Of a DNA stretch of 27,313 bases, positions 86-24,096 are shown one piece after another; position 1 is the stretch's first letter; each line of letters begins with the position of its first letter. The DNA is taken from contig DATFXM010000021.1 of NCBI GenBank assembly GCA_035315885.1, positions 1 to 27,313 of the forward strand, written 5' to 3'. The notes under the pieces are model-generated. The model searched no databases. It saw nothing but the letters and a program-made list of their open reading frames with translations, and was not told the DNA's origin. The translations under genes and the position numbers were made by a program. Source of the DNA: Blastocatellia bacterium. GTDB taxonomy: Bacteria; Acidobacteriota; Blastocatellia; UBA7656.

Positions 86-1768
86 ATGAGCAGCGTACCC
101 AACAAAGTGATCTATTCGATGGTCGGCGTGGGCAAGTTCTACGACAAGAAGCCGGTCATTAAGGACATATATCTCTCGTACTTCTACGGTGCAAAGATAG
201 GAGTGATCGGACTGAACGGCTCGGGCAAGAGTTCGCTTCTGCGGATCATAGCCGGTGTTGACAGGGAGTTCGTCGGAGAAACGGTATCGTCGCCCGGTTA
301 CTCCGTTGGCTACCTCGAACAGGAGCCGCGCCTCGATGATTCGAAGACCGTCCGTCAAATCGTCGAGGAGGGCGTCCAGGAAACGGTTGATTTGCTTAAG
401 GAGTTCGACGAGATCAATGCCCGATTTGCTGAGTCTCTTACTGACGACGAGATGAATGCACTGCTCGAACGTCAAGGCACGGTGCAGGAAAAACTGGAGA
501 GTGCCGGAGGCTGGGATCTCGACAGCCGTCTGGAAATGGCGATGGACGCGCTGCGCTGCGCGCCCGGCGAGACGCCGATCGCCGTTTTGTCTGGCGGAGA
601 GCGGCGGCGTGTGGCGTTGTGCAGGCTATTGCTGAAGCAGCCGGACATCTTGCTGCTCGACGAACCTACAAATCACCTGGACGCTGAATCAGTGGGTTGG
701 CTCGAACAGCATCTTCAAAAGTATGCCGGTACGGTAATCGCAGTGACGCACGATCGCTACTTCCTGGACAACGTGGCAGGCTGGATCCTCGAGCTGGATC
801 AGGGGCGCGGCATACCGTGGGAAGGAAACTATTCGTCCTGGCTTGGGCAGAAGCAAGAGCGATTGAGGCGTGAAGAGAAGACCGAGAGCCAGCGTCAAAA
901 GACACTCGAGCGTGAGCTGGAATGGATACGAATGGCGCCTCGCGCGCGACACGCAAAATCGAAGGCGCGAATCAACGCCTACGAGCAGTTGCTCTCGCAG
1001 GAAAGCGAACGGCGCGGTCGCGAGCTGGAGATCTTTGTTCCTCCGGGGCCCAGACTTGGAGATGTGGTCATTGATGCGAAGGATGTGACAAAGGCTTATG
1101 GCGACAACCTGCTGATGGAAGATCTTTCGTTTTCGTTGCCGCCTGGCGCGATCGTCGGAGTGATAGGACCCAATGGGGCGGGCAAGACTACATTGTTTCG
1201 GATGATCACCGGACAGGAACAAGCTGACTCGGGCAGCTTTCGTGTAGGCGAAACCGTCAAGCTCGGCTACGTCGACCAGAGTCGCGAACTCGACGCTGAA
1301 AAGACGATCTGGGCCGAGATCTCGGGCGGTGAGGAGATGATTCAGCTCGGCAAGCGAGAGGTCAACTCGCGAGCCTACGTCGCGAGATTCAACTTCTCCG
1401 GTTCTGACCAACAGAAGAAAGTAGGCATGCTGAGCGGGGGCGAACGGAATCGCGTTCACCTTGCGAAGATGTTGAAGGAAGGGGCGAATGTAATTCTGCT
1501 GGATGAGCCTACGAACGACCTGGACGTCAACACGCTGCGCGCGCTTGAAGAGGCGTTGGAGAACTTTGCCGGCTGCGCGGTTGTGATAAGCCACGATCGA
1601 TGGTTTCTGGATCGACTGGCGACACACATTCTGGCGTTTGAGGGAGAGAGCCGGGTTGTGTACTTCGATGGCAACTATTCGGAGTACGAAGCCGATCGAC
1701 GGGCCAGACTTGGGGAGAGCGCATCGCAGCCGCATCGAATAAAGTACCGCCACCTTACGAGAGGATAG
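86..1768 (+). CDS. ettA: ABC-F family ATPase, energy-dependent translational throttle EttA (YjjK)
   Basis: 560 aa. Two ABC cassettes, each with Walker A (GLNGSGKSS / GPNGAGKTT), an LSGGE signature and Walker B. The inter-domain linker and ~555 aa length are typical of EttA. Stop TAG at 1766-1768. Confidence 0.9.
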   Translation: MSSVPNKVIYSMVGVGKFYDKKPVIKDIYLSYFYGAKIGVIGLNGSGKSSLLRIIAGVDREFVGETVSSPGYSVGYLEQEPRLDDSKTVRQIVEEGVQETVDLLKEFDEINARFAESLTDDEMNALLERQGTVQEKLESAGGWDLDSRLEMAMDALRCAPGETPIAVLSGGERRRVALCRLLLKQPDILLLDEPTNHLDAESVGWLEQHLQKYAGTVIAVTHDRYFLDNVAGWILELDQGRGIPWEGNYSSWLGQKQERLRREEKTESQRQKTLERELEWIRMAPRARHAKSKARINAYEQLLSQESERRGRELEIFVPPGPRLGDVVIDAKDVTKAYGDNLLMEDLSFSLPPGAIVGVIGPNGAGKTTLFRMITGQEQADSGSFRVGETVKLGYVDQSRELDAEKTIWAEISGGEEMIQLGKREVNSRAYVARFNFSGSDQQKKVGMLSGGERNRVHLAKMLKEGANVILLDEPTNDLDVNTLRALEEALENFAGCAVVISHDRWFLDRLATHILAFEGESRVVYFDGNYSEYEADRRARLGESASQPHRIKYRHLTRG

Positions 1769-1874
1769 TTCTGAGTCCTGAGTTCTGAGTGCCGGACGTG
1801 GAAAGATCACTCATTAAAAACTACTCAGAACTCAGAACTCAGAACTTCGGTGTGACTCAGAACTCAGAACTTCC
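1767..1874. repeat. Heptamer-array palindromic element E1: left arm (GAGTTCT)x3, 32-bp core, right arm (AGAACTC)x3 plus an extra right-arm copy
   Basis: agttctgagtcctgagttctgagtg ... ctcagaactcagaactcagaac ... gactcagaactcagaacttcc. Starts at the ettA stop codon and ends directly against the ATG at 1875. Confidence 0.8.
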
Positions 1875-2255
1875 ATGAGCGAACAACAGATCCAGGTTCT
1901 GGCTGACGCACTCGGAATCCCAAAGATTCGACGGCACATCTTCCTTTGTTGTGACCAGACCAAACCCAGATGTTCCGAAAAGGAAAAGAGCCTGGAATCG
2001 TGGGAATATTTGAAGAGACGATTGAAAGAGCTGAACCTGCTCGGCGACGGAGGAGTCTACAGAACAAAGGCGAACTGCCTTCAGATTTGTCAGCACGGAC
2101 CGACTGCACTGGTCTATCCTGATGGTGTCTGGTATCACTCCTGCACGCCAGAAGTGCTCGAGCGGATCATTCAGGAACATCTTATCGGCGGTGTGCCCGT
2201 TGAGGAGTATGTTATCTTCCGTCATCCCCTGGAGACTCCGCGCGAAAACGAATGA
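1875..2255 (+). CDS. Thioredoxin-like [2Fe-2S] ferredoxin family protein
   Basis: 126 aa. Cys pattern CC-x7-C ... C-x3-C ([10 protein letters not shown] ... CLQIC), as in Aquifex Fd4/NuoE-type thioredoxin-like ferredoxins. Stop TGA overlaps the rnhA ATG (ATGA at 2252-2255). Confidence 0.65.
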
Positions 2256-2728
2256 ATCAGAGCCAGGATGTCATCGCATACACGGACGGTGCTTGTTTGG
2301 GAAATCCCGGCCCGGGCGGTTGGGGTGTCGTACTTCTTTACGGCGATAACCGCAAGGAGCTGTCGGGCGGATTCCGTTTGACTACAAACAACCGCATGGA
2401 GATCACGGCGGTTATCGAAGCCCTCAGGGCGTTGAAGCGACCTTGCCGAATCACTGTACACAGCGACTCGCAATATGTGGTGAACGCGATCATGCAGGGT
2501 TGGGCAGAACGATGGCGCGAGAACGGATGGAAGCGCAACAAGAAAGAAAAGGCGATCAACCCGGACTTATGGGCCGAGCTCCTGGAGCTGGTTTCGCGGC
2601 ACACGGTGCGCCTGCAATGGGTGCGAGGACACTCCGGCGTTGAAGAGAACGAACGTGCCGACCGGCTTGCGATGGCCGCCGCACAACGCAAAGATTTGCC
2701 CCGGGACGAGCAATACGAGCGTTCTTGA
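2252..2728 (+). CDS. rnhA: Ribonuclease HI
   Basis: 158 aa. N-terminal motif [18 protein letters not shown] and the C-terminal ERADxLA acidic residues fit the RNase H type 1 fold. Typical length. Confidence 0.9.
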
Positions 2729-2737
2729 GTCAGAGGC

Positions 2738-3484
2738 TTGTATCATCTCCATTGTAAGCGAGCAACCGCTTTGAAAGCTCTTCAACAGCTTGCAAGTCTT
2801 CTTCCGGATATTCCTCGTTGGATAGAAGTCAGGTCGATGCTTCTCGAAGGTAGCTGTGAGGTCGAGGGCCTGAAGCCTGACCAGCCGGACGCTTGCTTTG
2901 TGCTTTGGAATCGGCGTAGAGAATTGACCGCGGTGGTCGGCCGCCCTGACAGAAATGCGATACAGGAAACATTGGTACGGGCTGAGAACAAGGGCGTGGT
3001 GATTTGTGCGCCCGAGAACACAGAATGGCTCGGAGCGATTCTCGAGGGCTGGTCAGCAGGTTCGGCAACGCTTCATTTGCTCAAAGATTCGTCCCGTTTA
3101 CCTCGGCCTGATCCGAATTCTGTCCGCTTTATCGCGGCGGATGAGATCGCGACTCTTGGATACTTGCCGCCACCTTTGCTTGAGGAGTTGGAGGTAGTTG
3201 CGCCGACTTGTTTGATTGCGGCTACATTGGTGGACAAAATGCCAGTGTCTTTCTGCTACGTGGCTTGGGAAACTGAGACTCTGTGGGACATTTCTATTGA
3301 AACGTTGCCCGGGCATCGCGGAAAGGGTCACGCAGGTGTTGCAGTGTCTTTCTTGATCGGTCATATGAATAGGAAGGGAAAACAGCCAGTGTGGGGTGCG
3401 GAAGATTCAAATTCTCCGTCGCTGAAGCTGGCGGCAAAGCTTGGCTTTGTTCCTGTAGACCGTCTGACAGTCTTTCGAAAATAG
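2738..3484 (+). CDS. GNAT-like acetyltransferase domain protein, start uncertain
   Basis: The C-terminal ~90 aa (ETLPGHRGKGHAGVAVSFLIGHM...KLAAKLGF) resemble a GNAT acetyl-CoA binding core. The N-terminal ~150 aa are unassigned. The longest ORF starts at TTG 2738, and an internal ATG lies at 2837. Confidence 0.45.
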   Translation: MYHLHCKRATALKALQQLASLLPDIPRWIEVRSMLLEGSCEVEGLKPDQPDACFVLWNRRRELTAVVGRPDRNAIQETLVRAENKGVVICAPENTEWLGAILEGWSAGSATLHLLKDSSRLPRPDPNSVRFIAADEIATLGYLPPPLLEELEVVAPTCLIAATLVDKMPVSFCYVAWETETLWDISIETLPGHRGKGHAGVAVSFLIGHMNRKGKQPVWGAEDSNSPSLKLAAKLGFVPVDRLTVFRK

Positions 3485-3550
3485 GAGCGAGAAATCGAGA
3501 ACGAGGAACCAAACTCAATCAACGAGAACCCCGGACTTTTCGCGGCGCTG

Positions 3551-4525: not shown

Positions 4526-4566
4526 TTTCGTTTCACTGTTGGACGGGTTTGATCAAGCGAACTTGT

Positions 4567-5193: not shown

Positions 5194-5200
5194 GGTTGAC

Positions 5201-5370
5201 GGTTTCTAGTTTCTGGTTTCTGGTTCTTATTCTCTGCTCGACTACAACAGTCGATTGGTTGATTGACGAAAGTACTCAACACTTCGAAGCGTGCTCGGGT
5301 TCTCTCCATGGGCTGGCATTTGTAGGGCAATTCGTCAGGAACGAGAAACCAGAAGCCATAAACCCGAGAC
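5201..5370. repeat. Heptamer-array palindromic element E2 (GGTTTCT family), intercistronic between msrP and msrQ
   Basis: Left arm ggtttctagtttctggtttctggttc (5201-5226). Right arm gaacgagaaaccagaagccataaacccgag (~5339-5368). Inner complementary segments gctcgggttctc / aacccgag are also present. Confidence 0.65.
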
Positions 5371-5376
5371 CGATCA

Positions 5377-6476: not shown

Positions 6477-6508
6477 TCTAAAATGAGCAGGGCGCCGAAG
6501 CGCCCTGC
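6477..6508 (-). terminator. Rho-independent terminator after the aldehyde dehydrogenase gene
   Basis: GCAGGGCGC-cgaa-GCGCCCTGC hairpin (9-bp GC stem, tetraloop) at 6487-6508. Followed on the minus strand by TCATTTTAG. Confidence 0.6.
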
Positions 6509-8203: not shown

Positions 8204-8839
8204 TCATCCCAGCATCTCCAGCAGGTCGGTAGGTGAGTCGAGGGTGAGATCCGGCACTGCATCAATGAGGCGCTCGCGGGTGGACCCGCCCCACAAGGCC
8301 GCAGCGGTTCGAGTGCCCGCCGCACGACCCATCAGGATGTCCGACGGACTGTCGCCGATTACGAGCGTAGCGCGCGGATCGGCGTTCAGCTCGCCCAATG
8401 CTCGCAGAACGCCATCCGGTTCAGGCTTCGGACGAGCAACGTCGTCTCCCCACACGGCGAAGTCAATGCGCGACCTGAGTCCGATGATATCTAACTCGAG
8501 CTCGCCCGCGCGACGGGGCTTGAGCGACACGATGCCTACGCTTGCGCCACGCTGATTGAGTGAATCGAGCACGCGTTCCACGCCGTCGTAGGCGGTGAGG
8601 TGCTGATGGTGCGTTGCGTAGTAGTGTTCTTCAAAGCTCGCAAGCATCTCATCCACCATCTGCTCGCCGTAGCGCTTGAGAACCTCGTGCGGGGTGACGT
8701 TCCAGAAATCAGTGAAGTCCCGTTCATCGGGAGCTGAGCCGGTGTGACGTTCAATCGAATGCAGGAATGCTACGCGATACGCCGGTTCAGAATAAGCCAG
8801 TGTTCCATCAAAGTCGAACAGGAAGCAGTTCAAGTTCAC
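8204..8839 (-). CDS. HAD-superfamily hydrolase (phosphoglycolate phosphatase-like, subfamily IA)
   Basis: Motif I FDFDGTL, motif II S/T, motif III K ... GDSxxD (VIGDSPSDI). The start is placed at GTG 8839, with GGAGAA 8 nt upstream. The longer ORF to 8977 would run through repeat element E3. Confidence 0.7.
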   Translation of the reverse strand: MNLNCFLFDFDGTLAYSEPAYRVAFLHSIERHTGSAPDERDFTDFWNVTPHEVLKRYGEQMVDEMLASFEEHYYATHHQHLTAYDGVERVLDSLNQRGASVGIVSLKPRRAGELELDIIGLRSRIDFAVWGDDVARPKPEPDGVLRALGELNADPRATLVIGDSPSDILMGRAAGTRTAAALWGGSTRERLIDAVPDLTLDSPTDLLEMLG

Positions 8840-8882
8840 TACGATATTCTCCTCTCTCTGTGCGCCGCTGCCAAGGGATAGG

Positions 8883-8958
8883 GAGTACTGAGTACTGAGA
8901 GACTTCAAGTCCGCATCGGTTGCAACTCCAATCTCAGAGTTCCATACTGAGAACTTCC
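8883..8958. repeat. Heptamer-array palindromic element E3 (degenerate; GAGTACT arms)
   Basis: gagtactgagtactgagag ... ctcagagttccatactgagaacttcc. The right end abuts the ATG at 8960. Confidence 0.6.
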
Positions 8959-8959
8959 C

Positions 8960-9472
8960 ATGATCGAACTCATACAAGGCGACATCACTAGTCTAAAAGT
9001 TGATGCCATCGTGAATGCCGCAAACGAGTCGTTGCTCGGAGGCGGCGGCGTTGATGGCGCAATACACCGTGCGGCTGGTCCCGGCCTGCTAATTGAATGT
9101 CGCACGCTCGGTGGGTGCCCAACCGGCGAGGCGAGAATCACGCGCGGATACAAATTGCCGGCGCGTCACGTAATTCATACCGTAGGTCCGGTATGGAATG
9201 GTGGCGGTCAGGGCGAGCCTGAGCTTCTGGCGTCCTGCTACCGCTCGAGTCTGAAGCTCGCTGTTGATAATGGCGTGCGGTCGATTGCATTTCCCGCCAT
9301 CAGTTGCGGCATCTATGGGTATCCGCCTGACAAGGCGTCAGAGATTGCAGTTTCCGAAGCCCGAGAATTTCTGCGCTCGACTTCGGATATCGATCGAATC
9401 GTGTTTGTGTGCTTTGAGAACCAGGTCTACGAGGCGTATCAGCGGTTGCTAGCAAAAGTAGAGGACCGGTGA
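8960..9472 (+). CDS. ymdB: Macrodomain protein (O-acetyl-ADP-ribose deacetylase, YmdB/MacroD-like)
   Basis: 170 aa. GDIT...[21 protein letters not shown] and the catalytic G-I-Y-G region are all present. Confidence 0.85.
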
Positions 9473-11794: not shown

Positions 11795-11880
11795 GAGCCG
11801 AGGGCTCAGGGGTGAGCGCTGAGGGCTCCGGCTGAGTGCTGAGTTTGTTGGTCTCTCGGTACTCAGCACTCAGCACTACT
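11795..11880. repeat. Heptamer-array palindromic element E4 (GCTGAGT / ACTCAGC arms)
   Basis: gctgagtgctgagt (11830-11843) ... actcagcactcagcact (11861-11877). The right arm overlaps the stop codon of the zinc-ribbon gene. Confidence 0.65.
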
Positions 11881-12581: not shown

Positions 12582-13616
12582 ATGACCCGGCGAGTGATCA
12601 TCACGCGCACGATTGTACTTCCCGCGGCAACCTTGTTTCTTTTGGTCGTCTGTGGCGGGTTCGTTAGCGAATCAATGCAGCAGAACATGATCCGTGGAAA
12701 GGTCCGCGCGGCGGATGGTACCACGGTTAACAACGCCATAGTCGAACTCAGAATAGGCGGCGGGGGAATGATATCTCAGAAGGTTACTCACAACGATGGA
12801 GACTTCGCGTTCAATGGTCTCGCAAGCGGCGAGTACGAGGTCGCGGTGACTGTAGCGGGATTTGAGCCGGCGGCGCAGACCGTCAGGTTTACTGAAAACG
12901 ATCGCATGAACTTCATGGAAGTAGTCTCCGTGGAGATCATGATTCGCGCCAAGCCCGACCCAAATGCGTTTCTCTCACCGCCGGGAGTGAGTTTTGTTCA
13001 AGAGGTGCCAAAAGCGGCTCGCAGCAGTTATGAAAAAGGCGTCGGCAAGCTCAAGGAAGGGAAACCCGACGAAGGCGTAGCGCTGTTGCGCGAAGCCATA
13101 GCCGGATTCAATGACTATTTCGATGCGCACTTCTCTTTGGCCAAGGAGCTTTTTCGGCAGGGCAAAGATGCCGAAGCTCTCGAGGAACTTGAGCGCGCCA
13201 GACAAATCAACGACCGCCAGGATGCAGTGTTCTTCCTATTCGGCATGGTGATGCTCAAGCAACAGAAGTTTGTCATAGCCGAATACGCGTTTCGCGAAGC
13301 GCTGAGACTGAATCCCAACAATGTGGGCTCGCGGTTTTACCACGGCGTAGCGCTAATTGAAATCGCCGGTCGGAGCAAAGATCAGACGCAGAGCGTTTCG
13401 GACCTCACTGAAGCAGAGAAGGAGCTCAATCGCGCTTACGATATGAGCGAACGGAAACTGAGCGCGGTTTTTTACCAGAGGGCGCGGATTTGCGAGCGGC
13501 GCGGCGACAACGCGGGCGCCGCCAGGGAACTGGAGAACTACCTCAAGGCTGATCCCGATGCCAAGAACGCCGCACAGATTCGAGAGAAGATCACCAAATT
13601 GCGCAGCCGGCGTTGA
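12582..13616 (+). CDS. Membrane-anchored carboxypeptidase-regulatory-like domain plus TPR-repeat protein
   Basis: N-terminal TM helix, a CarbopepD_reg-like beta-sandwich (IRGKVRAADGTTVNNAIVELRIGGG...EYEVAVTVAGFE), then ~4 TPR-like helical repeats. The start is placed at ATG 12582, with GGGAG 6 nt upstream. Confidence 0.7.
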   Translation: MTRRVIITRTIVLPAATLFLLVVCGGFVSESMQQNMIRGKVRAADGTTVNNAIVELRIGGGGMISQKVTHNDGDFAFNGLASGEYEVAVTVAGFEPAAQTVRFTENDRMNFMEVVSVEIMIRAKPDPNAFLSPPGVSFVQEVPKAARSSYEKGVGKLKEGKPDEGVALLREAIAGFNDYFDAHFSLAKELFRQGKDAEALEELERARQINDRQDAVFFLFGMVMLKQQKFVIAEYAFREALRLNPNNVGSRFYHGVALIEIAGRSKDQTQSVSDLTEAEKELNRAYDMSERKLSAVFYQRARICERRGDNAGAARELENYLKADPDAKNAAQIREKITKLRSRR

Positions 13617-13620
13617 CAAA

Positions 13621-13717
13621 GGAGAGTAGGCAGTAGGCAGTTAGTTTCGTGGTTTCTGGTTCCTTCTTTCTGGTTCGCGTGCGTGTCTGATTTCTTAGAG
13701 CCTACTGCCTACTCTCC
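13621..13717. repeat. Heptamer-array palindromic element E5 (GTAGGCA / TGCCTAC outer arms, GGTTTCT inner repeats)
   Basis: ggagagtaggcagtaggcag ... gtttcgtggtttctggttccttctttctggttc ... gcctactgcctactctcc. GTTGAC lies immediately on both flanks (13612-13617 and 13719-13724). Confidence 0.7.
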
Positions 13718-13848
13718 TGTTGACGCATCCGTTCTCTTCGCTTATCATCCGTCAATCTCGCGTGTTTTTCAGTCGTCAGGCCTGAAACGCACCATCGCTT
13801 GCAAGTTTCGAAACAGCTCCCGAGTCAAAGCCATTGGAGGTCCTGGTT

Positions 13849-15822: not shown

Positions 15823-17394
15823 TTATTTGTCGCTTCGAGATCCATCTACCGGCGCCTGAAGAGACGATAAGAACTCGCGAACAACTTGTTTGACGTCGCG
15901 CTTCTCGCCGTCCACCGCGTAGTTCAGCTTTCGCATGTCGGCATCAGTGATCTTGCCAGCCAGAGACTCCAGCGCGGCTAATATCTCCGGCGATCGCTCC
16001 AGCGTCGCCTTTCGGAACACGGGCGCTGCCTCGTACGGTGGAAAGTAGTGTCGATCGTCGGTTAGTTGATAGAGATTCAGTTTATCGATCAACCCGTCTG
16101 TAGAGTTGCCGGCGATCACGTCTACCTGGCCGCCTGCAAGAGCTCTGTACGTTAGCGAAAGGTCCATCTCACGTGGAGGCTCGCCGAATCTCAAGCCGTA
16201 GGTGTGCACCAGACCGGGATAACCGTCCTTCCGATTGATGAAGTCCTGACCGAAGCCGGCGTGCAATCTCGGCGCGACGGCGGCGAGGTCCGAAATGGCT
16301 TTTAGATGAAGGTTGGCCGCATCCTGACCTCGCACCAGTATTGCAAAGGTGTTCTGAAACCCGAGTGGTGAAAGCCACTCAAGTCCGAACTGCGATTGGT
16401 ACTCGCTTTTGACTTGATTGTAGACTTCGCGCGGATCGGTTAGTGGCTCGTGCTTGAGAATCGCAGTAAACGCGGTTCCGGTGTACTCGACGTAGCCGTC
16501 GATCTCGCCATCCACAAGCGCCCGATGACAGAGGTCACCCCCGAGCTCGAACTGGCGTTTGACCTCGATGCCGGTTCGGGACTCGATGAGCTGAGCAGTC
16601 ATTTCGCCGAGAATAACCTGTTCAGTGAAGTCCTTCGATCCAACTACAATTTGGTGCGTTTCAGTCCTGGAAAAAACAATGCTCGCCACGGCTACGGTGG
16701 CTATTAGAACCGTTGCGCCAACGAGCCTGCGAGCGCGGTGCTGACTTCTTATCCTGGACGGCGCGAGTGATCTCTCAACCAGCCCGAGCAAGAAGTCAGC
16801 CGCAAGGGCCATCAACGCGGCAGGAAGTGCGCCTGCCAACACCAGAGTGTTGTCACTCATTCGGAGGCCGCGAAAGATAAGGGTGCCCAGCCCGCCCGCG
16901 CCGATTGCCGCTGCGATAGTGGCAGTGCCGACGGCGATCACCGTAGCGACGCGGACGCCTGCGATGATTACCCCCATCGCCAGCGGCAGCTCTACCTGCA
17001 AGAGCATCTGCCGGTCGGTCATTCCCATCCCGCGTGCGGCTTCTTTGACCGCGGGATCGACGCCATTGATGCCCGTGAAGGTGTTGCGGATTATTGGGAG
17101 GAGAGAGTACAGGAACAGTGCGATTATTGCCGGCAGGCGTCCGATGCCGTACCTGCCCAGTATCGGAATCAGAAAGCCGAACAGCGCCAGACTCGGAATG
17201 GTTTGAAGCACGTTAGCGATGCCAAGCACCGGTTTGCTGAGAGATGGCTTGCGAGTCAATAGAACGCCGATCGGCAGGCCAGCGGCGGTCGCCGCTGCCG
17301 TTGCAATCGCAACCAGGATGAGGTGCTCGAGCGCAAGTTGCCCAACCTGGGTCCGATTGTTGATCAGGAATTCGAAGAGTCGGCTCATTATCAC
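15823..17394 (-). CDS. ABC transporter permease fused to a C-terminal betaine-type substrate-binding domain (OpuC/ProWX/EgtU architecture)
   Basis: 523 aa. The N-terminal ~210 aa form a BPD-transport TMD of ProW/OpuCB type (EAA-like loop). The C-terminal ~290 aa form an OpuAC/ProX-family periplasmic binding domain. Confidence 0.85.
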   Translation of the reverse strand: MIMSRLFEFLINNRTQVGQLALEHLILVAIATAAATAAGLPIGVLLTRKPSLSKPVLGIANVLQTIPSLALFGFLIPILGRYGIGRLPAIIALFLYSLLPIIRNTFTGINGVDPAVKEAARGMGMTDRQMLLQVELPLAMGVIIAGVRVATVIAVGTATIAAAIGAGGLGTLIFRGLRMSDNTLVLAGALPAALMALAADFLLGLVERSLAPSRIRSQHRARRLVGATVLIATVAVASIVFSRTETHQIVVGSKDFTEQVILGEMTAQLIESRTGIEVKRQFELGGDLCHRALVDGEIDGYVEYTGTAFTAILKHEPLTDPREVYNQVKSEYQSQFGLEWLSPLGFQNTFAILVRGQDAANLHLKAISDLAAVAPRLHAGFGQDFINRKDGYPGLVHTYGLRFGEPPREMDLSLTYRALAGGQVDVIAGNSTDGLIDKLNLYQLTDDRHYFPPYEAAPVFRKATLERSPEILAALESLAGKITDADMRKLNYAVDGEKRDVKQVVREFLSSLQAPVDGSRSDK

Positions 17395-17402
17395 TCGGGG
17401 CG

Positions 17403-17527
17403 GTTTAGAGTTTAGGGTTTAGGGTTTCTGTTTCGAGTTTCTGGTTGCTGGTTCCCTTGTCGCGGCGCTTGGTTCCTGGAGCTTCGCGCTGTCAATCAAA
17501 CCAGAACCAGAAACCCGAAACCCTCTA
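17403..17527. repeat. Heptamer-array palindromic element E6 (GTTTAGG / GGTTTCT family), intercistronic between the ABC ATPase and permease genes
   Basis: Left arm gtttagagtttagggtttagggtttctgtttcgagtttctggttgctggttcc. Right arm aaaccagaaccagaaacccgaaaccctc, which overlaps the ATPase stop codon. Confidence 0.7.
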
Positions 17528-18295
17528 CTGCATCGTCTCCACAAAAGCCCTCGCTTCCGGATCGTCGAGTTTCAGGAATTCTTCGGTGGACGTAAGTGCG
17601 ATCAAGTGCCCGTCCTTGAACAGACCAATTCGGGACGCGAGAAGGAAGGCCTCGCGTACGTCGTGTGTCACAAACACGATCGTCTTGTTCAGCCTCTTTG
17701 AGAGCGCCGCAAACTCACGCTGAAGCCCTGCGCGAGTCAGCGGGTCAAGCGCTCCAAACGGCTCGTCCATAAGAATGATGGGCGGGTCGCCCGCCAACGC
17801 TCGAGCCACACCGACTCGTTGCCGTTGGCCGCCCGACAACTCCGCCGGCGAACGATGCGCAAAGGACGCGTGATCAAGTCCCACCAGGTCGAGTAGCTCC
17901 CGAACCCGCGTTGCAATTCTTTCCGGAGCCCAGCCGTTCAGTGTTGGCACCAGTGCAATGTTTCGTTCAACCGTGAAATGCGGAAACAGTCCAGTCTCCT
18001 GAATCACGTACCCAATATGACGCCGGAGTTTGATGGCGTCCCATAGAGTCGTCGGTTTGCTTTCGACCAGGATTTCGCCCTCAGTCGGGTCAAGAAGCCG
18101 GTTGATCAGTTTTAGAGTCGTAGTCTTTCCTGATCCACTGCGGCCCAAAAGCACCAGAGTTTCGCCGGCGGACACCACAAAATTCAAATCGGAGACAAGG
18201 TTCTTTCCTTGTGGAATGGTCAGCGTGACATCCCGGAACTCAATCGCGGCGGCGGGTACATCCCGTTCGTCTGTTCGGGGCTGAGGTTTTTCCAC
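17525..18295 (-). CDS. ABC transporter ATP-binding protein, betaine/ProV-OpuCA-like but lacking the C-terminal CBS pair (EgtV-like)
   Basis: 256 aa. Walker A GRSGSGKTT, signature LSGGQRQRV, Walker B ILMDEPFGALD and the H-loop are present. GTG start lies 5 nt after the egtD stop. Confidence 0.85.
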   Translation of the reverse strand: MEKPQPRTDERDVPAAAIEFRDVTLTIPQGKNLVSDLNFVVSAGETLVLLGRSGSGKTTTLKLINRLLDPTEGEILVESKPTTLWDAIKLRRHIGYVIQETGLFPHFTVERNIALVPTLNGWAPERIATRVRELLDLVGLDHASFAHRSPAELSGGQRQRVGVARALAGDPPIILMDEPFGALDPLTRAGLQREFAALSKRLNKTIVFVTHDVREAFLLASRIGLFKDGHLIALTSTEEFLKLDDPEARAFVETMQ

Positions 18296-18300
18296 CTGAG

Positions 18301-19329
18301 CTAGTCCACTGAAAGGAGGTTGAAGCTGAACCGACGACCAGCATCAAACCAGGTCCGCGAGAGCTTGAAACCACCCCTCCTCGCGATCTCGCCCAGCTTG
18401 TCCAGATCGTATTTGTACGAGCTTTCGGTGTGAACCGATTCACCGGGTTCGAACTCGACTTCAAGGTCGAGCGCACCAATTCGAATTGTCTGCCGAATCC
18501 GACTCACAAGGTGCATCTCTACGCGGCTGAGCGCTTCGTTATAACACGAGCGATGCTCGAACTCTTCCAGCTTGAAATCGGAGCGCAATTCGCGGTTGAT
18601 GCGGACCAGAAGGTTGAGATTGAAAGCGGCAGTGACGCCGAGGGAGTCATCGTAAGCCGGTATCAGCACGTCGGGTGATTTCTTGAGGTCAGCCCCAAGC
18701 AGGAAGGCATCACCGCTATCAAGCAACTCGCGGACGGCGCTGAGAAACGATACAGCTTCGTCCGGGTCGAAGTTGCCGATGTTCGACCCGAGAAAGAGCG
18801 CTACTGTGCGCTCGGAACCGCCGTGTTGTGCGCGCTCTCGCTTAAAGGCTTCCAAAGCGGTGAAGTAGTCTGCTGCGTACGCGGTGATGCGAAGTTTCGG
18901 GTAGGCGCGCAGCAGCTCCCGGCTGCTTGTCTGAAGGCTTGCCGGCGAGATGTCTACGGGCAAGTAATGGAGCTCCGTTTGACGACGAAGGAACGCCTCG
19001 ATGAGGAGGCGCGTCTTCTCGGCACTACCGCTTCCGAGCTCGATCAGCCGGACCGAAGGGCTGGAATTCGCGATCGAGGTTGCGATTTCGGTGGATCGCT
19101 CGCGCAGAATTTGGCTCTCGGCTCGCGTCAGGTAGTATTCAGGCAGGCAACAGATCGCTTCGAAAAGGCGAGACCCCAGTTCGTCGTAAAAATACTTTGG
19201 AGGTAGATGTTTGGGTTTTTGAGTCAGCCCGTTGCGCACATCGCGCCCTAGCGCGCTGCTGTCGCCTCCGTCCGCAAGTTGATGGATGATCAAGCGATCG
19301 TCTTGTTGAGGATATGTTTTTTGCGCCAC
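18301..19329 (-). CDS. egtD: L-histidine N-alpha-methyltransferase EgtD (hercynine synthase, ergothioneine pathway)
   Basis: 342 aa, collinear with mycobacterial EgtD: PPKYFYDELGSRLFEAICCLPEYYLTRAE, ELGSGSAEKTRLL, LFLGSNIGNF, PAYDDSLGVTAAFNLNLL, ESSYKY. Confidence 0.9.
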   Translation of the reverse strand: MAQKTYPQQDDRLIIHQLADGGDSSALGRDVRNGLTQKPKHLPPKYFYDELGSRLFEAICCLPEYYLTRAESQILRERSTEIATSIANSSPSVRLIELGSGSAEKTRLLIEAFLRRQTELHYLPVDISPASLQTSSRELLRAYPKLRITAYAADYFTALEAFKRERAQHGGSERTVALFLGSNIGNFDPDEAVSFLSAVRELLDSGDAFLLGADLKKSPDVLIPAYDDSLGVTAAFNLNLLVRINRELRSDFKLEEFEHRSCYNEALSRVEMHLVSRIRQTIRIGALDLEVEFEPGESVHTESSYKYDLDKLGEIARRGGFKLSRTWFDAGRRFSFNLLSVD

Positions 19330-19417: not shown

Positions 19418-19672
19418 AGAGTTCTGAGTACTGAGTTCTGATTTAATGGCCCTGAGTAGGAGATGAGGGGATTGAGAGAGCCTCTGCGGCCTTTGCGAAC
19501 CATGCGGCCTTTGCGTGAAACCCGGATTTGCCCCCTGCAGCGGATTGTGGACACAGCGCTTTGTCCCCGGGGTCAACAGCTTGGAAGTCTGGTTTCACGC
19601 AAAGACCCCGGAGGCTCTCCTCATCCCCTCATTTCCAACTCAGCACTCAGGACTCAGCACTAAGAACTGAGC
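19418..19672. repeat. Composite nested palindromic element E7 (~255 bp): GAGTTCT-array outer arms, GGAGATGAGG inner arms, further inner inverted repeats
   Basis: Outer gagagttctgagtactgagttctga / actcagcactcaggactcagcactaagaactgagc. Inner aggagatgaggggattgagagagcctc / gaggctctcctcatcccctcat. Innermost ggcctttgcgtgaaacc / ggtttcacgcaaagacc. ggcctttgcg also occurs as a direct duplicate. Confidence 0.75.
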
Positions 19673-19920
19673 GACCGGCAGCCGTAACTACCTCTACCCA
19701 GAGCGCATTAGATCGGCGGGAGCCAGAGAAAATCTTACACGGGGCGCCTGTAACAATTACCGGCTTGCAGGCTTTTGGCCGGCCGTAAACGCTCAAAATG
19801 CTGGGGATTTTGGGGAGACCGGCCCGGCACAGGGATTGCGGAAGACTCAGTGGGGCAGAGATACGGGTGATGAAAATCATTTCCGGTCTCTTATTCGGTT
19901 ACTGTGGTGAGGACGGTAAC

Positions 19921-19951
19921 CAAAGGCGATGCGGGAATCTCGCATCGCCTT
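19921..19951 (+). other. Perfect 12-bp stem-loop immediately upstream of the OmpA-like gene
   Basis: AAAGGCGATGCG-ggaatct-CGCATCGCCTTT, followed by ATTCTCATTTCG. It ends 22 nt before the ATG at 19974. Confidence 0.5.
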
Positions 19952-19973
19952 TATTCTCATTTCGACAGGCAGC

Positions 19974-20708
19974 ATGAAAGGGTTTATGACGACCAGACTT
20001 GGCCGTGTCATTGCGGTCAGTTTACTCGCGACAGCCTGCTGCGCTGGGTGTGCGACTAAGAAGTACGCAAGAAATCGGGTAAACGAGCGGGTTACCCCGC
20101 TCGAGAGCCGAACCGGGGAACTCGAGGAGACGTCCAGGCGCAACAGCCAGGACATCTCGAGGCTTGCCGGCGACGTTACTGATGTTCGGCGGCGAGCCGA
20201 CCGGGCTCAGGCTCAAGGCGAAGCAGCTACGACTCGCGCCGAAGAAGCCAGCCGTCGTGCCGGATCCGCTGAAGCAGCAGTCGGCGACCTGAGAGCGAAC
20301 CTGGATAAGTACTCGCTCCAGAAGACCGCCACTGTAAACTTCAAGACCGACAGTTATGAGTTATCTCCTGACGCGCGGGCGGTCCTCGACCAGCTTGCTG
20401 CCCAGATTAGAGACCGCGAGAACTTCATATTCGAAATTGAGGGCTTTGCCGATGCTCGTGGCACCGATGCTTATAACTTTCAGCTCACCGCGAAGCGGGC
20501 CGACGCGGTTAGGCGTTACTTTGCGGAGCAGCACAAGGTTTCCCTGTTCAGGATGCACGTCCTCGGGATGGGCGAGTCGAACGCGGTAGCTGACAACACC
20601 ACTATCGAAGGACGAGCACAAAACCGGAGAGTAGAAATAAGGTTGCTGAGCCGAGAGCCGGCGCTGTCACAGTCAGCGCGGCGTGCGTCCCCCGATAAAA
20701 ATCAGTGA
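19974..20708 (+). CDS. OmpA-family peptidoglycan-binding lipoprotein with a central coiled-coil
   Basis: Signal and Cys-rich lipobox-like region (LLATACCAGC). The C-terminal OmpA_C domain carries FDTDSYELSP-like, NFQLTAKRADAV and RRVEI motifs. The start is placed at ATG 19974; the ORF-track start is at 19929. Confidence 0.75.
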   Translation: MKGFMTTRLGRVIAVSLLATACCAGCATKKYARNRVNERVTPLESRTGELEETSRRNSQDISRLAGDVTDVRRRADRAQAQGEAATTRAEEASRRAGSAEAAVGDLRANLDKYSLQKTATVNFKTDSYELSPDARAVLDQLAAQIRDRENFIFEIEGFADARGTDAYNFQLTAKRADAVRRYFAEQHKVSLFRMHVLGMGESNAVADNTTIEGRAQNRRVEIRLLSREPALSQSARRASPDKNQ

Positions 20709-20762
20709 GTCCTGACGCAGAGTCGAGGCTAGAACCCAAAGCCCTCGTTCGCCCCCAAGAAG

Positions 20763-20794
20763 AAAAGCGCATCGCTGATGCGCTTTTTTCTTTT
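20763..20794 (+). terminator. Rho-independent terminator after the OmpA-like gene
   Basis: AAAAGCGCATC-gct-GATGCGCTTTT, followed by TTCTTTTGG. Confidence 0.7.
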
Positions 20795-20810
20795 GGTTCT
20801 CCTGGTCAAC

Positions 20811-20853
20811 GAAATGGAAAAACGCGCTCACGACAACCGATCGTGAGCGCGTT
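20811..20853 (-). terminator. Rho-independent terminator after the TonB-dependent receptor gene (convergent with the previous terminator)
   Basis: 13-bp perfect stem AACGCGCTCACGA / TCGTGAGCGCGTT with loop caaccga. On the minus strand it is followed by TTTTTCCATTT. Confidence 0.65.
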
Positions 20854-20892
20854 TCTTTCTGCGCGGTGGATTCTGCAGGGGTCCGCGCAGGT

Positions 20893-23800
20893 TTAGAACG
20901 TGAACTTCACTGCAAGCTGCAACTGACGCGGATCGCCCACTCCGACTCTCAGAAAGCCGTCGAAGTTGAACAAAGCCGGCGAGACCAGCGGGTTGACGTT
21001 GTTGTCATTATTAAACGTGTTGAACATCTCGACCATCGGAGTCAGGGTCATTCGATCGTTGAACTTGAATGGGCGCAGCAGCCGCCAGTCGAACGAGAAG
21101 TAATCGTTGTTCTTCCGGATGCTGTTTCTTCCCTGATCAACGCCGTTCACCACACGCGGGTTCGGAGTGATGGGTTGCGCGGAATGAGCTTGCATTCGAG
21201 TGTTCAACTGAAAGCCCCAGCCGGGTTCGCAGTAGGCGAAGAAGTTGAACTTGTGCCGCTCGTCCCGGTCCGACAGCGAGTAGTCTTTACCGAAGTCGTT
21301 GTGATCAAACACTCGGTCGGTGAACGGATCGCGTTCGTTCGAGTCGTCGTCCAGATCCTTCGAGTACACGTAATTCCCTTCGAGCTGGAACCGGTTGCTG
21401 AAGCGCTTCCTCAATCCAACGGTGAGTCCGCGATACAGCGATTTCGCCGAGCTCTGCGTAACGAACACGTCGCCCAATTGAGGTCCGAACGGCGCAGGTC
21501 CTTGGTTGATGTTTACAAACCTGGTAAGGTGTACGCCCTTCGAATGGGTGAAGTCGACATACGCCGCCCAGTTCGGAGACAGCTCCTGTTCGAAAGCTAC
21601 ATTGGTCGTGTAGATCCTGGGATTGGCGTAGTCTTTTGAAAAGACCCGCACACCGGTAAACAGAGGGAAGGTCCCCGGCGGAACGTCGGGTATCGGCGCA
21701 AGCCCAGGCCACGTCGGAGCGCTGGCAAACCCCTGACGAATCAGATCCGTACTCGCGAAGTTAGTTCGTTGTTGAGCGCCGTTGGTTGTGATCGAGCCAA
21801 CCTGGCTGAGCATATTCTGCCGGGCATTGTAGATGCCCCAGCTCGCCCGCAGCACTGACCTGCCCTTCTTGCTTATGTCCCAGGCGAATCCGACGCGCGG
21901 CTGAAACATCTTCCACTGATCGTGCAACGTGCCGTCTGACGGGAACCGCGGATCGTTCAGGAAAGGACCGTAAGCAGTTTGCTCCGGAGGCACGACAGCA
22001 TTAGGAAACACCTGGGCTTCCCATCTCAGGCCGTAGTTGAGCGTGAGGTTTGGCAGGATCTGAAACTTGTCCTGCGCGAAAAATGCGATGTCATCATTCT
22101 TGATTGTGGACGCGCCTGGAGGGGGAACACCGCTCAGACCGCTCGGTATTCCGTCCTGCAGGTAGAACAAGAGAGGACCGCCGCTCGTGGCCCCGCCCGG
22201 ACACGTTGCCGGCAACGTCACGAAGGTTCCGTTGGAGCAGCCGATGGTGTTTGGCCCAAACCCTCCGGGCGCGGCGGGTGACGCGTAACGAAGGAAACCG
22301 GTGACGCTGTCGAACAGGTAGCGGCCGGTGAAGAATCCGCGAAACACCTGGTCGTTCAGCGTGTGAATCCACTCGCCTCCCATCTTAAATGTGTGTTTTC
22401 CCTCGATGATCGAGAAGCTGTCCCGGAGCTGCGTTCGCCAGATCAGCTCGTCTACATTCGGCTGCAGGAAGAACGGATTTCCGAATCTGAAAGTTGGAAC
22501 GAAACCCATTCCGGTGTCCGCAAGAAGGTTTGACTGTGTCGCCTCACGCGGACGAGACTCTCGCGAATAGGTAAAGTGAGCTTCGTTCAGCTTTGTTGGC
22601 GAAAGCGTGCTGAACAGGTTGAGGTTGAACACATTGATCTTCGATGGCCCCTCAGTGCCGTTCGCCGACGTTCCGTAAGTCGCCACGTCGAAGGTCTGGT
22701 TTTCATTCTTCGAGTGGTCAAAGTTGTACGACGCGCTGAGCTTGTTGTTAGCCGTCAGACTCCAGTCCAGCTTGCCCAGGACAGCGCTATTTCGAATCGG
22801 GTGTTTGACCGCCAACCCCTCGTTTTGTCCAAGCTTGCTTTGGAAGAAATTCAGCAGCGCAAGCCGCTGACAATCGGGGCTGCCGTTGATCAGCGCTTCG
22901 TTTGCGGGCACGGTAGGAGCCGCAACAGGGCATGGCGTTCCGATCGGAATGCTGAGGTTGGAGCGAGTGAGATTCGAAATGATCTGCTCAAACGCACCGA
23001 AGAAGAAAACCTTGTCTTTTATGATCGGTCCGCCGATGGTTCCGCCGAACTGCTCTCTATGAAAATCGGTGAGTGGCTGGTGGTCGGAGGTCTCGGCAGA
23101 AAGACCCTCAAGCCGTTGATAATGAAACAAGCTGCCGTGGATGGTGTTGGTGCCCGATTTCGTGATCACATTTATAACGCCGCCGGCGGTTCTGCCGAAC
23201 TCGGCGCTGGCTCCGCTCGAGATCACCTGGAATTCCTTGACCGCCTCCAGGGTGATGTCGATCGCGGCGCGTTGACCACCTGCCTGTTCGCCGAAGAATC
23301 CATTGTTGTAGTCTCCACCGTCCAGGCTGATGTTATTGAATATGCCGCGCTGTCCGGAGAAGTTAATTTCGTCACCGTCCGGGCCCTGGGTGATGGCGAC
23401 GCCTGGGGTCAGCGTAAGCAGGTCCTCAAACTTGCGCCCGAGAATCGGAGTTGTGCTCACCGAGAGCTCGTTCAGGGTCGTGCTCGATTCAGTCTTGACC
23501 GTATCGATGGTTGGGGCCGCGGTGATTGTGATCTTCTCCTCTAGACGGGAGACTTTCATGTTGAGAGAGAGCGTTATTGCCTGCCCGACCGTGAGCTCGA
23601 GGTTTTGCTGAATCAGCGTTGCAAACCCCTGTTTGCTGGCGGTTAGGGTGTATTTCCCGGGTTGGAGCTGAAGAAAAACGAATCTTCCGTCGGAGCCGGT
23701 TTCCAGCTTCTTGCTGAAGTTGGTGTCCAGATTCAAGACTTCGACGCTCGCTCCGGCGACAACCGACCCTTGTTCGTCGAGCACCGTTCCCTGGATTACT

Positions 23801-23898
23801 CCGGTGGTGATCTGAGTCTGGCCTGCAGCCGAATGCACGAGCGCGAGCATGAGCAAAACTGATAGCAAGATTCTTGAGCGTGCCTGAGCTTTTTTCAT
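20893..23898 (-). CDS. TonB-dependent outer-membrane receptor with an N-terminal carboxypeptidase-regulatory-like domain
   Basis: ~1000 aa. Signal peptide (MKKAQARSRILLSVLLMLALVHSAAG). CarbopepD_reg motif (GVIQGTVLDEQGSVVAGASVEVLNLDTN...GKYTLTASKQGF). Plug and beta-barrel regions, ending in an aromatic residue (KFTF). The start is placed at ATG 23898; the ORF-track start is at 23964. Confidence 0.85.
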   Translation of the reverse strand: MKKAQARSRILLSVLLMLALVHSAAGQTQITTGVIQGTVLDEQGSVVAGASVEVLNLDTNFSKKLETGSDGRFVFLQLQPGKYTLTASKQGFATLIQQNLELTVGQAITLSLNMKVSRLEEKITITAAPTIDTVKTESSTTLNELSVSTTPILGRKFEDLLTLTPGVAITQGPDGDEINFSGQRGIFNNISLDGGDYNNGFFGEQAGGQRAAIDITLEAVKEFQVISSGASAEFGRTAGGVINVITKSGTNTIHGSLFHYQRLEGLSAETSDHQPLTDFHREQFGGTIGGPIIKDKVFFFGAFEQIISNLTRSNLSIPIGTPCPVAAPTVPANEALINGSPDCQRLALLNFFQSKLGQNEGLAVKHPIRNSAVLGKLDWSLTANNKLSASYNFDHSKNENQTFDVATYGTSANGTEGPSKINVFNLNLFSTLSPTKLNEAHFTYSRESRPREATQSNLLADTGMGFVPTFRFGNPFFLQPNVDELIWRTQLRDSFSIIEGKHTFKMGGEWIHTLNDQVFRGFFTGRYLFDSVTGFLRYASPAAPGGFGPNTIGCSNGTFVTLPATCPGGATSGGPLLFYLQDGIPSGLSGVPPPGASTIKNDDIAFFAQDKFQILPNLTLNYGLRWEAQVFPNAVVPPEQTAYGPFLNDPRFPSDGTLHDQWKMFQPRVGFAWDISKKGRSVLRASWGIYNARQNMLSQVGSITTNGAQQRTNFASTDLIRQGFASAPTWPGLAPIPDVPPGTFPLFTGVRVFSKDYANPRIYTTNVAFEQELSPNWAAYVDFTHSKGVHLTRFVNINQGPAPFGPQLGDVFVTQSSAKSLYRGLTVGLRKRFSNRFQLEGNYVYSKDLDDDSNERDPFTDRVFDHNDFGKDYSLSDRDERHKFNFFAYCEPGWGFQLNTRMQAHSAQPITPNPRVVNGVDQGRNSIRKNNDYFSFDWRLLRPFKFNDRMTLTPMVEMFNTFNNDNNVNPLVSPALFNFDGFLRVGVGDPRQLQLAVKFTF

Positions 23899-23972
23899 GT
23901 TCCGCCCCCAATATGTTGTAATGGTGTCTGCGTTGGCGCGCATTCTATAGCGGCTTTGAAACACACGTCAAC

Positions 23973-24096
23973 GAGTAAGAGTACTGATTTCTGAGTCATG
24001 AGTTCTGATGGGTTAAGGGAGATGATGGGTTAAGGGAGATGAGGGATGAGGAGATGCGGAGATGAGGAGACTCAGAACTCAGAACTCAGAACTTCC
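23973..24096. repeat. Heptamer-array palindromic element E8 with a tandem 17-mer and GGAGATGAGG core
   Basis: Left gagtaagagtactgatttctgagtcatgagttctga. Core gatgggttaagggagat x2 then gagggatgaggagatgcggagatgaggaga. Right ctcagaactcagaactcagaacttcc. Confidence 0.75.

Follow-up and report, generated by a model that had tools for sequence, protein, structure and literature searches.

The stretch of DNA analysed here, referred to below as the window, is an entire 27,313-bp contig from a soil acidobacterial metagenome-assembled genome (MAG) of Blastocatellia. Its intergenic spacers contain eight elements, E1 to E8, in which tandem arrays of 7-nt units are arranged as inverted pairs around unrelated cores. 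Pfam scans place the genes in the order EttA, a 126-aa protein of unknown type, RNase H and a GNAT acetyltransferase; an msrP/msrQ-like pair, an aldehyde dehydrogenase and a HAD hydrolase; Macro, NUDIX and SpoU proteins, two M48 peptidases, a LiaF-like protein and a TPR protein; and finally an opuA-like ABC transporter, an EgtD-like methyltransferase, OmpA, a TonB-dependent receptor and an SPFH protein. Judged by these domain matches, the contig carries an ordinary housekeeping set. The elements are listed below with the length and complementarity of their arms, where scored, and with z, the RNA folding score of each element computed against dinucleotide shuffles.

E1, 1767-1874, spacer between the EttA gene and the 126-aa gene: left arm (AGTTCTG)3.4 at 1767-1790, beginning within the EttA stop codon TAG; core at 1791-1822; right arm (ACTCAGA)3.4 at 1823-1846; a second, unpaired array, (ACTCAGA)2.4 at 1855-1871, ends 3 nt before the ATG at 1875; arms 24 nt, 96%; z -3.0.

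E2, 5201-5370, spacer of the msrP-msrQ-like operon (genes on the minus strand): left arm (GGTTTCT)3.6 at 5201-5226, with 7 nt between it and the msrQ start; right arm degenerate, at 5339-5364, ending about 12 nt before the msrP stop; arms 26 nt, 85%; z -2.9.

E3, 8883-8958, between the divergent HAD hydrolase and Macro-domain genes: a weak palindrome with left array (GAGTACT)2.4 at 8883-8899 and a degenerate right arm whose final bases, GAGAACTTCCC, stand just ahead of the ATG at 8960; a minus-strand promoter-like site at 8874-8846 faces outward; z -1.2.

E4, 11795-11880: a perfect 14-bp heptamer hairpin in which GCTGAGTGCTGAGT at 11831-11844 pairs with ACTCAGCACTCAGC at 11861-11874; the array extends into the TAG stop of the LiaF-like gene (minus strand), and a GC-rich hairpin with a 20-nt repeat lies at 11795-11843; arms 14 nt, 100%; z -4.7.

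E5, 13620-13718: perfect 19-bp arms AGGAGAGTAGGCAGTAGGC and GCCTACTGCCTACTCTCCT around an unpaired direct (GTTTCTG)4.4 array at 13644-13675; a few nt separate its start from the stop codon upstream, and 2 nt its end from a promoter-like TTGACG-17-TATCAT; arms 19 nt, 100%; z -5.8.

E6, 17402-17529, spacer of the opuA-like operon (minus strand), between the ABC ATPase gene and the permease/binding-protein gene: on the left (GGTTTAG)3.7 at 17402-17427, largely unpaired and adjoining the start codon, then GTTTCTG-type units up to 17453; right arm at 17498-17529, overlapping the ATPase stop codon; arms 32 nt, 81%; z -3.65.

E7, 19418-19672, between divergent genes: a 255-nt nested palindrome with outer arms of GAGTTCT/GAGTACT units at 19419-19441 and ACTCAGC-type units at 19638-19672; inner arms formed by purine-rich GGAGATGAGGGGA with its complement and by a 17-nt pair (19506-19522 with 19591-19607); a promoter-like site of the minus strand, at 19414-19386, points outward; arms 74 nt, 73%; z -8.1.

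E8, 23973-24096, between divergent genes: degenerate heptamers on the left at 23979-24008, a perfect (ACTCAGA)3.4 on the right at 24070-24093, and between them (24006-24070) an unpaired purine-rich repeat block of the GGAGATGA type with periods of 8, 16 and 17; outward promoter-like sites at 23971-23942 (minus strand) and 24126-24153 (plus strand); arms 15-20 nt, 87-90%; z +0.3.

Tandem Repeats Finder called period-7 arrays at all eight sites. When an array was defined as head-to-tail 7-nt units in at least about 2.4 copies, a periodicity scan found 13 period-7 arrays in the window compared with 0.3 in shuffled sequence, while periods 4-6 and 8-12 stayed near background and period 3 was mildly raised (38 vs 25.6). 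Every one of these arrays is intergenic and belongs to E1-E8, and the elements fill eight of the roughly 13 sizeable spacers on the contig. Twelve of the 13 have an inverted partner (a 14-mer with at most two mismatches within 300 nt), for which we estimated a chance of about 1% per array, and the G/T-rich arm comes first in each of the six pairs scored. All-against-all BLAST of the eight elements revealed no common core or cargo, the shared sequence being confined to the heptamer arrays. These results bear out the single architecture proposed in a preliminary description of this DNA, made from the sequence alone. That description also held that the arms are reverse complements in every copy; E2 and E3, however, have degenerate arms on the right and E8 one on the left, and two arrays, the (GGTTTAG)3.7 of E6 and the inner (GTTTCTG)4.4 of E5, lack a true complementary array. 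Likewise, the units do differ between copies, but the six heptamers it quoted collapse to three families, namely GAGTNCT (E1, E3, E4, E7 and E8), GGTTTCT/GGTTTAG (E2, E6 and the inner array of E5) and GTAGGCA (E5).

Predicted RNA folding exceeded that of the shuffled controls in six of the eight elements (E1, E2, E4, E5, E6 and E7), which were 2.9 to 8.1 standard deviations more stable; E3 and E8 were weak, the latter no better than its shuffles. The earlier statement that no coding sequence explains the elements stands with one qualification. A single open reading frame (ORF), that of the HAD hydrolase at 8204-8977 on the minus strand, overlaps E3. Since the domain begins only at residue 50 and the orthologue in an element-free relative (L120) has 216 aa, the start is probably over-called, and the true start probably lies to the left of E3. 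No in-frame, stop-free copy was seen inside a conserved protein gene of the window.

Purine-rich GGAGATGA and GGGTTAAGGGAGATGAT repeats with periods of 8, 16 and 17 lie inside both E8 (24006-24070) and E7 (19445-19480); the E7 copy has a complementary copy, and the repeats resemble iterated Shine-Dalgarno-plus-AUG motifs. A direct GTTGAC repeat flanks E5 (13612-13617 and 13719-13724), its left copy holding the TGA stop of the upstream gene and its right copy being the -35 hexamer of the promoter-like TTGACG-17-TATCAT. Read as a target duplication, this repeat is an isolated case, as no such signal appeared across 61 elements.

The positions of the elements relative to genes follow a pattern. 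E1, E2, E4, E5 and E6 start at an upstream stop codon or within about 12 nt of it, and the first unit of E1 and of E4 contains the TAG stop itself. Three elements are likely intra-operon, lying between EttA and the next gene (E1), msrP and msrQ (E2), and the ABC ATPase and permease genes (E6), and the distance from array to next start codon is 3-7 nt in E1, E2 and E3 and about 8 nt in E6. E3, E7 and E8 separate divergent genes. Sigma-70-like motifs, which are consensus matches only, face outward just beyond the arms of E3, E4, E5, E7 and E8; if these motifs are real, the five elements appear to lie upstream of promoters, outside the transcripts of the flanking genes.

A terminator scan called none of E1-E8, and neither T-runs nor U-tracts were found at the elements, which ruled out a reading as canonical intrinsic terminators. 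Ordinary terminators do occur elsewhere on the contig: GC-rich hairpins stand at gene ends at 6487-6508, 19922-19952, 20754-20856 and 27170-27207, with T-runs called for those inside the scanned range (calls of a GC hairpin with a T-run at 6487, 19922, 20761 and 20818-20856; the hairpin at 27170 comes from reading the sequence). A convergent pair of them separates the genes for OmpA and the TonB receptor. Because such terminators are found on the same contig, we regard the heptamer elements as a separate class. A search of Rfam with the whole window, on both strands, returned no match at or above the gathering score. Apart from the elements, an EgtD-like histidine methyltransferase lies directly upstream of the opuA-like glycine-betaine ABC transporter (15823-19329, minus strand), an adjacency that may couple synthesis of hercynine or an ergothioneine-type betaine to betaine transport.

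Related genomes lack the elements. Seven related Blastocatellia loci, with EttA proteins 85-89% identical to that of the window and about 103 kb in total, contained no genuine heptamer array. The spacer from EttA to the next gene measures 0-40 nt in the relatives and 106 nt at the E1 site of the window, and the msrQ-msrP junction, the site of E2, is 183 nt long in the window as against 7-16 nt in three relatives. Because the relatives have short spacers and no genuine arrays, we conclude that the elements are lineage-specific additions to compact spacers, and the absence of elements at orthologous loci is the outcome that the preliminary description had named as favouring a non-ancestral origin. 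In one element-free relative, the 16-nt msrQ-msrP spacer (L120:10448-10463) reads ATTGAGTAGGGTTCTG and resembles single copies of window units (GAGTAGG, GGTTCTG), a likeness that could be a seed, a remnant or chance.

A scan of metagenomes with the E1 loop sequence matched two contigs of the Joint Genome Institute (JGI), one identical and the other, L189, from a near-identical strain. In L189 the right arm of E1 is one ACTCAGA unit shorter, with two substitutions nearby. This difference of one unit in one arm demonstrates directly that arrays change by whole units, and that one arm can do so without the other. Near-identical sequence was found in two contigs only (L124/L188 and L189), the next EttA homologues being at most 89% identical; an exact-match look-up with the EttA protein of the window gave nothing.

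The same arrays occur far beyond this lineage, so that the search for further copies proposed earlier came out in favour of a family. A genome scan for (GAGTTCT)3 yielded at least 119 stretches (L001-L119, 864 kb), and the cross-phylum counts given from here on refer to the matches listed from that scan. The carriers belong to Acidobacteriota, Planctomycetota, Chloroflexota, Cyanobacteria, Bacteroidota, Gemmatimonadota, Nitrospirota, Armatimonadota, Bacillota, candidate phyla and others, and include isolate and chromosome-level records. Among the longer periods, period 7 prevailed (353 arrays, compared with 174 of period 6, 26 of period 8 and 23 of period 9). The period-7 arrays use 141 distinct units, and 123 of the 353 (35%) have an inverted partner; about 57 palindromic elements, built from many units, could be listed. 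Genome-specific unit families are reused at many loci, and both in the number of copies and in the variants of the unit the two arms drift separately. In viral contigs, (GAGTTCT)3 gave six matches, compared with 15 and 18 for permuted controls and 21 for (GGTTTCT)3; since it is no commoner there than permuted heptamers, we make no claim that GAGTTCT is a special heptamer. Two loci stand out for their length: a Pirellulaceae contig (L004:5-193) carries at least eight blocks of (GAGTTCT)3 from its first bases, possibly reflecting an assembly break, and a Thermoanaerobaculia locus (L085:5264-5412) has a 149-nt (CACTCTT)n array paired with (GAAGGGT)n.

Some rules of placement and orientation can be seen across these genomes. 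The G/T-rich arm came first in 47 elements and second in 14. Among paired arrays, this arm began within 15 nt after a stop codon in 27 cases compared with one for the opposite reading, and where an array stood just after a stop codon, the stop-containing strand was the sense strand in 45 cases and not in 15. As TGA occurs in every one of the three frames of (GAGTTCT)n while the complementary strand is free of stops, a filter against read-through damage can explain much of this polarity. The proximity of A/C-rich arrays to start codons seen in the window did not generalise: at distances of up to 15 nt from start codons no enrichment was found (paired arrays, 5 vs 6; solo arrays, 6 vs 8), and a general rule that A/C-rich arrays mark start codons is unsupported outside the window. 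By eye, purine-rich GGA/GAA often precedes paired arrays and TTC/TCC often follows them; in E1 and E3, AGAACTTCC(C) stands before the ATG.

In other genomes, heptamer palindromes also lie in frame and free of stops inside genes (L071, L094, L190 and L191). In a Phycisphaeraceae MAG (L071:4693-7458, minus strand), a 921-aa PriA frame with the Pfam domains PriA 3'-binding, DEAD, Helicase_C and PriA_C runs through three heptamer palindromes. The insertion unit, GAGTTCC, is stop-free in all frames, and the palindromes translate as SSEFRVPSSEL...NSELGTRNSEL; in one of the insertions, the sense G/T-rich arm of GAGTTCC faces a partner arm of AGAACTC, and because TGA is avoided, pairing is broken in every unit. 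The same MAG has one in-frame palindrome between two MurG domains (L094:4463-5851) and another inside a polyprenyl synthetase (L094:6368-7435), on a contig with 14 heptamer arrays in 8 kb. In a second Phycisphaerae genome, 8.9 kb of sequence holds 21 arrays, of which some fall in the called MutS gene and others in PriA; the divergent genes for MutS and PriA are separated by a 340-nt palindrome, (AGGGTTT)n...(ACCCTAC/ACCCTAA)n (L190:2690-3001, L190:1-2661). The reading frames of PriA, MurG and MutS are intact through the elements. Direct arrays were found in MutL of Tolypothrix and SbcC of Leptolyngbya. The unit of the L190 palindrome corresponds to the plant-telomere-like TTTAGGG, which is also the unit of the GGTTTAG array in E6.

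Alignment of PriA proteins showed that three relatives (75-84% identical) have insertions at the same three loops, with a drifting peptide, and that a fourth genome (64% identical) has insertions at these three loops built from other units. A cultured Phycisphaerales isolate has an insertion in one loop, and insertions of the heptamer type are absent from three other orthologues. In the DNA of loop 2, one lineage has (AGTTCCG)n...(AACTCGG)n and the other (GGATTTC/G)n...(GAAATCC)n, with complementary arms in each, and loop 3 of the isolate contains (GAGTTTC)n...(GAAACTC)n. Units thus differ between elements while the arms match within each, even at an orthologous site.

Taken together, the evidence leads us to favour, with somewhat more confidence than doubt, the interpretation that E1-E8 belong to a selfish or neutral, slippage-prone family of palindromic heptamer repeats that is lineage-specific, filtered by selection to harmless positions, and accompanied by REP-like side effects on transcripts (REP, repetitive extragenic palindrome). 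Arrays gain and lose whole 7-nt units by replication slippage, as the strain difference at E1 shows. The two arms would share their unit through an origin at the DNA level, by inverted duplication, by template switching or by copying of a pre-formed palindrome, so that selection on an RNA helix would not be needed. The elements were added to compact spacers and would survive only where harmless: flush with a stop codon with the stop-rich G/T strand as sense, between divergent promoters, in operon spacers or, in other genomes, in frame and stop-free in loops of conserved proteins. Spread within a genome would likely proceed by a process dependent on hairpins or on single-stranded DNA. Any transcript containing an element would be expected to fold into a long hairpin, which may act, as in REPs, as a barrier to 3' exonucleases, cause partial termination or, in E1, E2 and E6, uncouple the translation of cistrons.

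Several observations weigh against this interpretation. The polarity bias persists between divergent genes (six of eight cases by our reading), where a stop-codon filter cannot explain it. The outer phase AGTTC...GAACT occurs in 34 of 78 paired GAGTTCY arrays compared with 14 of 102 solo arrays, in a set comprising L001-L119 and E1, E3 and E8 of the window, and this preference is not predicted by simple slippage. Flanking direct repeats of 61 elements equalled the permuted control, giving no sign of target-site duplication, and Pfam scans matched no ORF of the 27-kb contig to a transposase family or to a REP-associated tyrosine transposase (RAYT). The elements of the window do not discriminate between a palindrome inserted ready-made and one grown in place. 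The predicted folds of E4, E5 and E7 are strong enough that these elements may have a selected structural role. Finally, the source genome is represented by a single 27-kb contig, and the cross-phylum gene calls are crude longest-ORF calls.

The strongest competitor is the view of the preliminary description, which took the within-copy matching of arms as covariation and hence as a sign that the stem-loop is what is conserved. The elements would then be selected RNA stem-loops that terminate transcripts without a U-tract, stabilise 3' ends or gate translation by hiding the start region, and that are kept in shape by compensatory evolution. This view is consistent with the folding of six of the eight elements 2.9-8.1 standard deviations below shuffles, with the start of five of the eight at or near an upstream stop codon, with the location of E1, E2 and E6 between cistrons of likely operons, and with array ends 3-7 nt (E1, E2 and E3) or about 8 nt (E6) from a start codon. 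It could also account for the PriA loop that carries different units with matching arms in two lineages, and the cyanobacterial literature suggests that such repeats affect how stable transcripts are or how translation is coupled (PMC2670836). However, across 30 elements with co-directional flanking genes, arm mismatches compatible with G:U pairing on the sense strand numbered 12 compared with 21 compatible only on the antisense strand, so that the sense-strand excess expected of RNA-level selection was not seen, in a test of small numbers and crude gene calls. Whole-unit differences separate the arms both between strains and within elements, E3 and E8 fold little or no better than shuffles, and E3, E5, E7 and E8 appear, from their promoter-like motifs, to lie outside the flanking transcripts. 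There are no U-tracts, although canonical terminators stand elsewhere on the contig; close relatives do without elements at the same operon junctions; and in the PriA copy of L071, avoidance of stop codons breaks the pairing in every unit. Given the lack of a G:U excess, the differences between arms in copy number and variants, and the presence of elements at probably untranscribed and at coding positions, the pattern is better explained by arms that share an origin at the DNA level and later slip and drift than by a selected RNA helix. The covariation is therefore poor evidence for a conserved stem-loop, and we consider selected RNA stem-loops an unlikely, though the best surviving, alternative to a slippage-prone repeat family.

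Less probable still is that the elements are classical MITEs (miniature transposable elements with inverted repeats) or REP elements, including their paired form, REPINs, moved in trans by the transposase of an insertion sequence or by a RAYT (HUH, Y1), with the heptamer arrays as terminal inverted repeats. Presence and absence at orthologous sites, genome-specific unit families at many loci, and a preference for the outer phase AGTTC...GAACT in paired but not in solo arrays would all suit such elements, as would in-frame insertions in housekeeping genes of the kind known for Rickettsia palindromic elements (PMC10969869). Set against this are target-site duplications no more frequent than chance, the lack of conserved internal sequence between unrelated cores, arms whose length and unit differ from copy to copy, and the absence of a transposase or RAYT gene among the ORFs of the contig; a 2024 review of prokaryotic MITEs contains neither a word that starts with 'heptam' nor 'tandem repeat'.

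We find it slightly more doubtful again that the arrays are binding sites for a nucleic-acid-binding protein working in a 7-nt register, for instance ribosomal protein S1, a regulator that binds DNA, or cold-shock-domain proteins, each of which covers about one heptamer; an A/C-rich array by the start codon would serve as a Shine-Dalgarno-independent leader and the G/T-rich arm as its antagonist. The strict 7-nt period speaks for such a protein, and so do the extra unpaired A/C-rich arrays next to the start codons in E1 and E6, where no Shine-Dalgarno motif precedes the genes. TAACTGA repeats directly upstream of start codons in Beggiatoaceae, for which Csp or S1 has been proposed (PMC4679880), and Nostoc heptamers near start codons (bioRxiv 10.1101/2022.06.06.494920) offer precedents. 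Yet 141 canonical units among 358 arrays, and three families within the window, argue against a sequence-specific binder; A/C-rich arrays are not enriched within 15 nt of start codons (see counts above), and arrays occur inside coding sequences too. That the repeats are an artefact of short-read MAG assembly across low-complexity sequence is very improbable, for although the window is a MAG contig and L004 carries a very long GAGTTCT array from its first bases, E1 was recovered in two JGI metagenome assemblies, one with a clean 7-nt difference, a cultured Phycisphaerales isolate has an in-frame heptamer palindrome, GAGTTCT arrays occur in isolate and chromosome-level records, and the PriA, MurG and MutS frames run uninterrupted through the elements.

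Beyond these readings, we tentatively raise a more speculative idea, which we consider unlikely: heptamer palindromes may be the footprint of an unrecognised propagating process, mobile between lineages, that writes or copies 7-nt-periodic hairpins without conserved sequence. Such a process may be an enzyme or a variant of replication or repair. It would explain why the same architecture and units recur across phyla while close relatives are without them (GAGTTCT and AGGGTTT are found in Acidobacteriota, Planctomycetota, Cyanobacteria, Chloroflexota, Bacteroidota and other phyla). It would likewise explain the outer phase AGTTC...GAACT, the G/T-first polarity and each genome's own unit families, as well as the in-frame colonised loops of PriA, MurG and MutS with lineage-specific units.

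The preliminary description found no matching repeat family, but the window elements belong to a known though poorly understood class, that of the short tandemly repeated repetitive sequences (STRR) or heptanucleotide long simple sequence repeats (LSSR), with inverted pairs reported in Xanthomonas (PMC4692102) and 7-bp STRR hairpins between hupS and hupL in cyanobacteria (PMC2670836). The closest parallel is the GGGAATC heptamer of Xanthomonas, present as 70-75 convergent inverted pairs per genome with no function found and no common function among the associated genes (Rehm et al. 2015, PMC4692102). As in the window, these repeats are mostly intergenic (about 90%), about three quarters are paired on opposite strands with the G-rich array first, they lie nearer the upstream than the downstream ORF, and their length and sequence vary among close relatives. 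They differ in forming one G-tract family able to form G-quadruplexes, whereas the window has three families in 27 kb, mostly without G-tracts: a GGG run is absent from GAGTTCT, GAGTACT, GGTTTCT and GTAGGCA and present only in the GGTTTAG array of E6. The Xanthomonas repeats are also under-represented between divergent genes, where three of the eight window elements lie, and come from another phylum.

STRR of filamentous cyanobacteria share the 7-bp unit, the occurrence of several families per genome and the formation of hairpins between cistrons, for example hupS-hupL, with a suggested role in transcript stability or translational coupling (PMC2670836). GAGTTCT/GAGTGCT arrays, some with an inverted partner, were indeed among the matches in Anabaena and Nostoc (L045, L056 and L062). 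STRR were, however, described for filamentous cyanobacteria with other canonical units, and in the literature searched we found no treatment of them as a palindromic class with a polarity rule or stop-codon adjacency. Vioque, in 1997, reportedly described STRR copies inside the RNase P RNA gene.

The likeness to other repeats is partial. The TAACTGA repeats of marine Beggiatoaceae, cyanobacteria and Bacteroidetes (MacGregor 2015, PMC4679880) are also mostly intergenic heptamers, patchy across phyla, with stops in all three frames of one strand and arrays that abut coding boundaries. They are, in contrast, direct arrays (169 sets compared with one indirect) of a single unit, placed forward and immediately upstream of starts. 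Rickettsia palindromic elements (PMC10969869) lie in frame in unrelated housekeeping genes and are apparently translated, much like the Phycisphaerae copies in PriA, MurG, MutS and polyprenyl synthetase; they form sequence-conserved families, about 150 bp in size, that show no period of seven, and the window has no copy inside an ORF. The resemblance to REP and MITE biology noted at the outset is supported in that REPs, bacterial interspersed mosaic elements (BIMEs) and REPINs are intergenic imperfect palindromes, often after stops or between the cistrons of operons, and dispensable in relatives. REPs differ in having conserved sequence with a GTAG-type head and in depending on RAYT, whereas the window elements share only period and architecture. 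REP elements affect mRNA stability and translation.

In the literature searched, we found no description of these repeats in an acidobacterial host, of a density as high as eight in about 13 sizeable spacers, of the polarity, stop-codon and phase rules, or of in-frame copies in essential genes of other phyla. Why seven nucleotides are preferred, and what such repeats do, has been a long-standing question since the cyanobacterial STRR and the 2007 survey of Mrazek et al., in which, as summarised in PMC4679880, heptanucleotides were the most abundant long simple-repeat class in most genomes examined. On the contig analysed here these repeats are packed very densely, in an acidobacterial lineage whose relatives are without them. 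The analyses that led outward from it provide handles on the question, namely a one-unit difference between strains, the polarity and stop-codon rules, the outer phase, and in-frame copies, including one in a cultured Phycisphaerales isolate. For genome annotation, it means that such elements inflate operon spacers, may pass for regulatory RNAs and can add peptides to conserved proteins.

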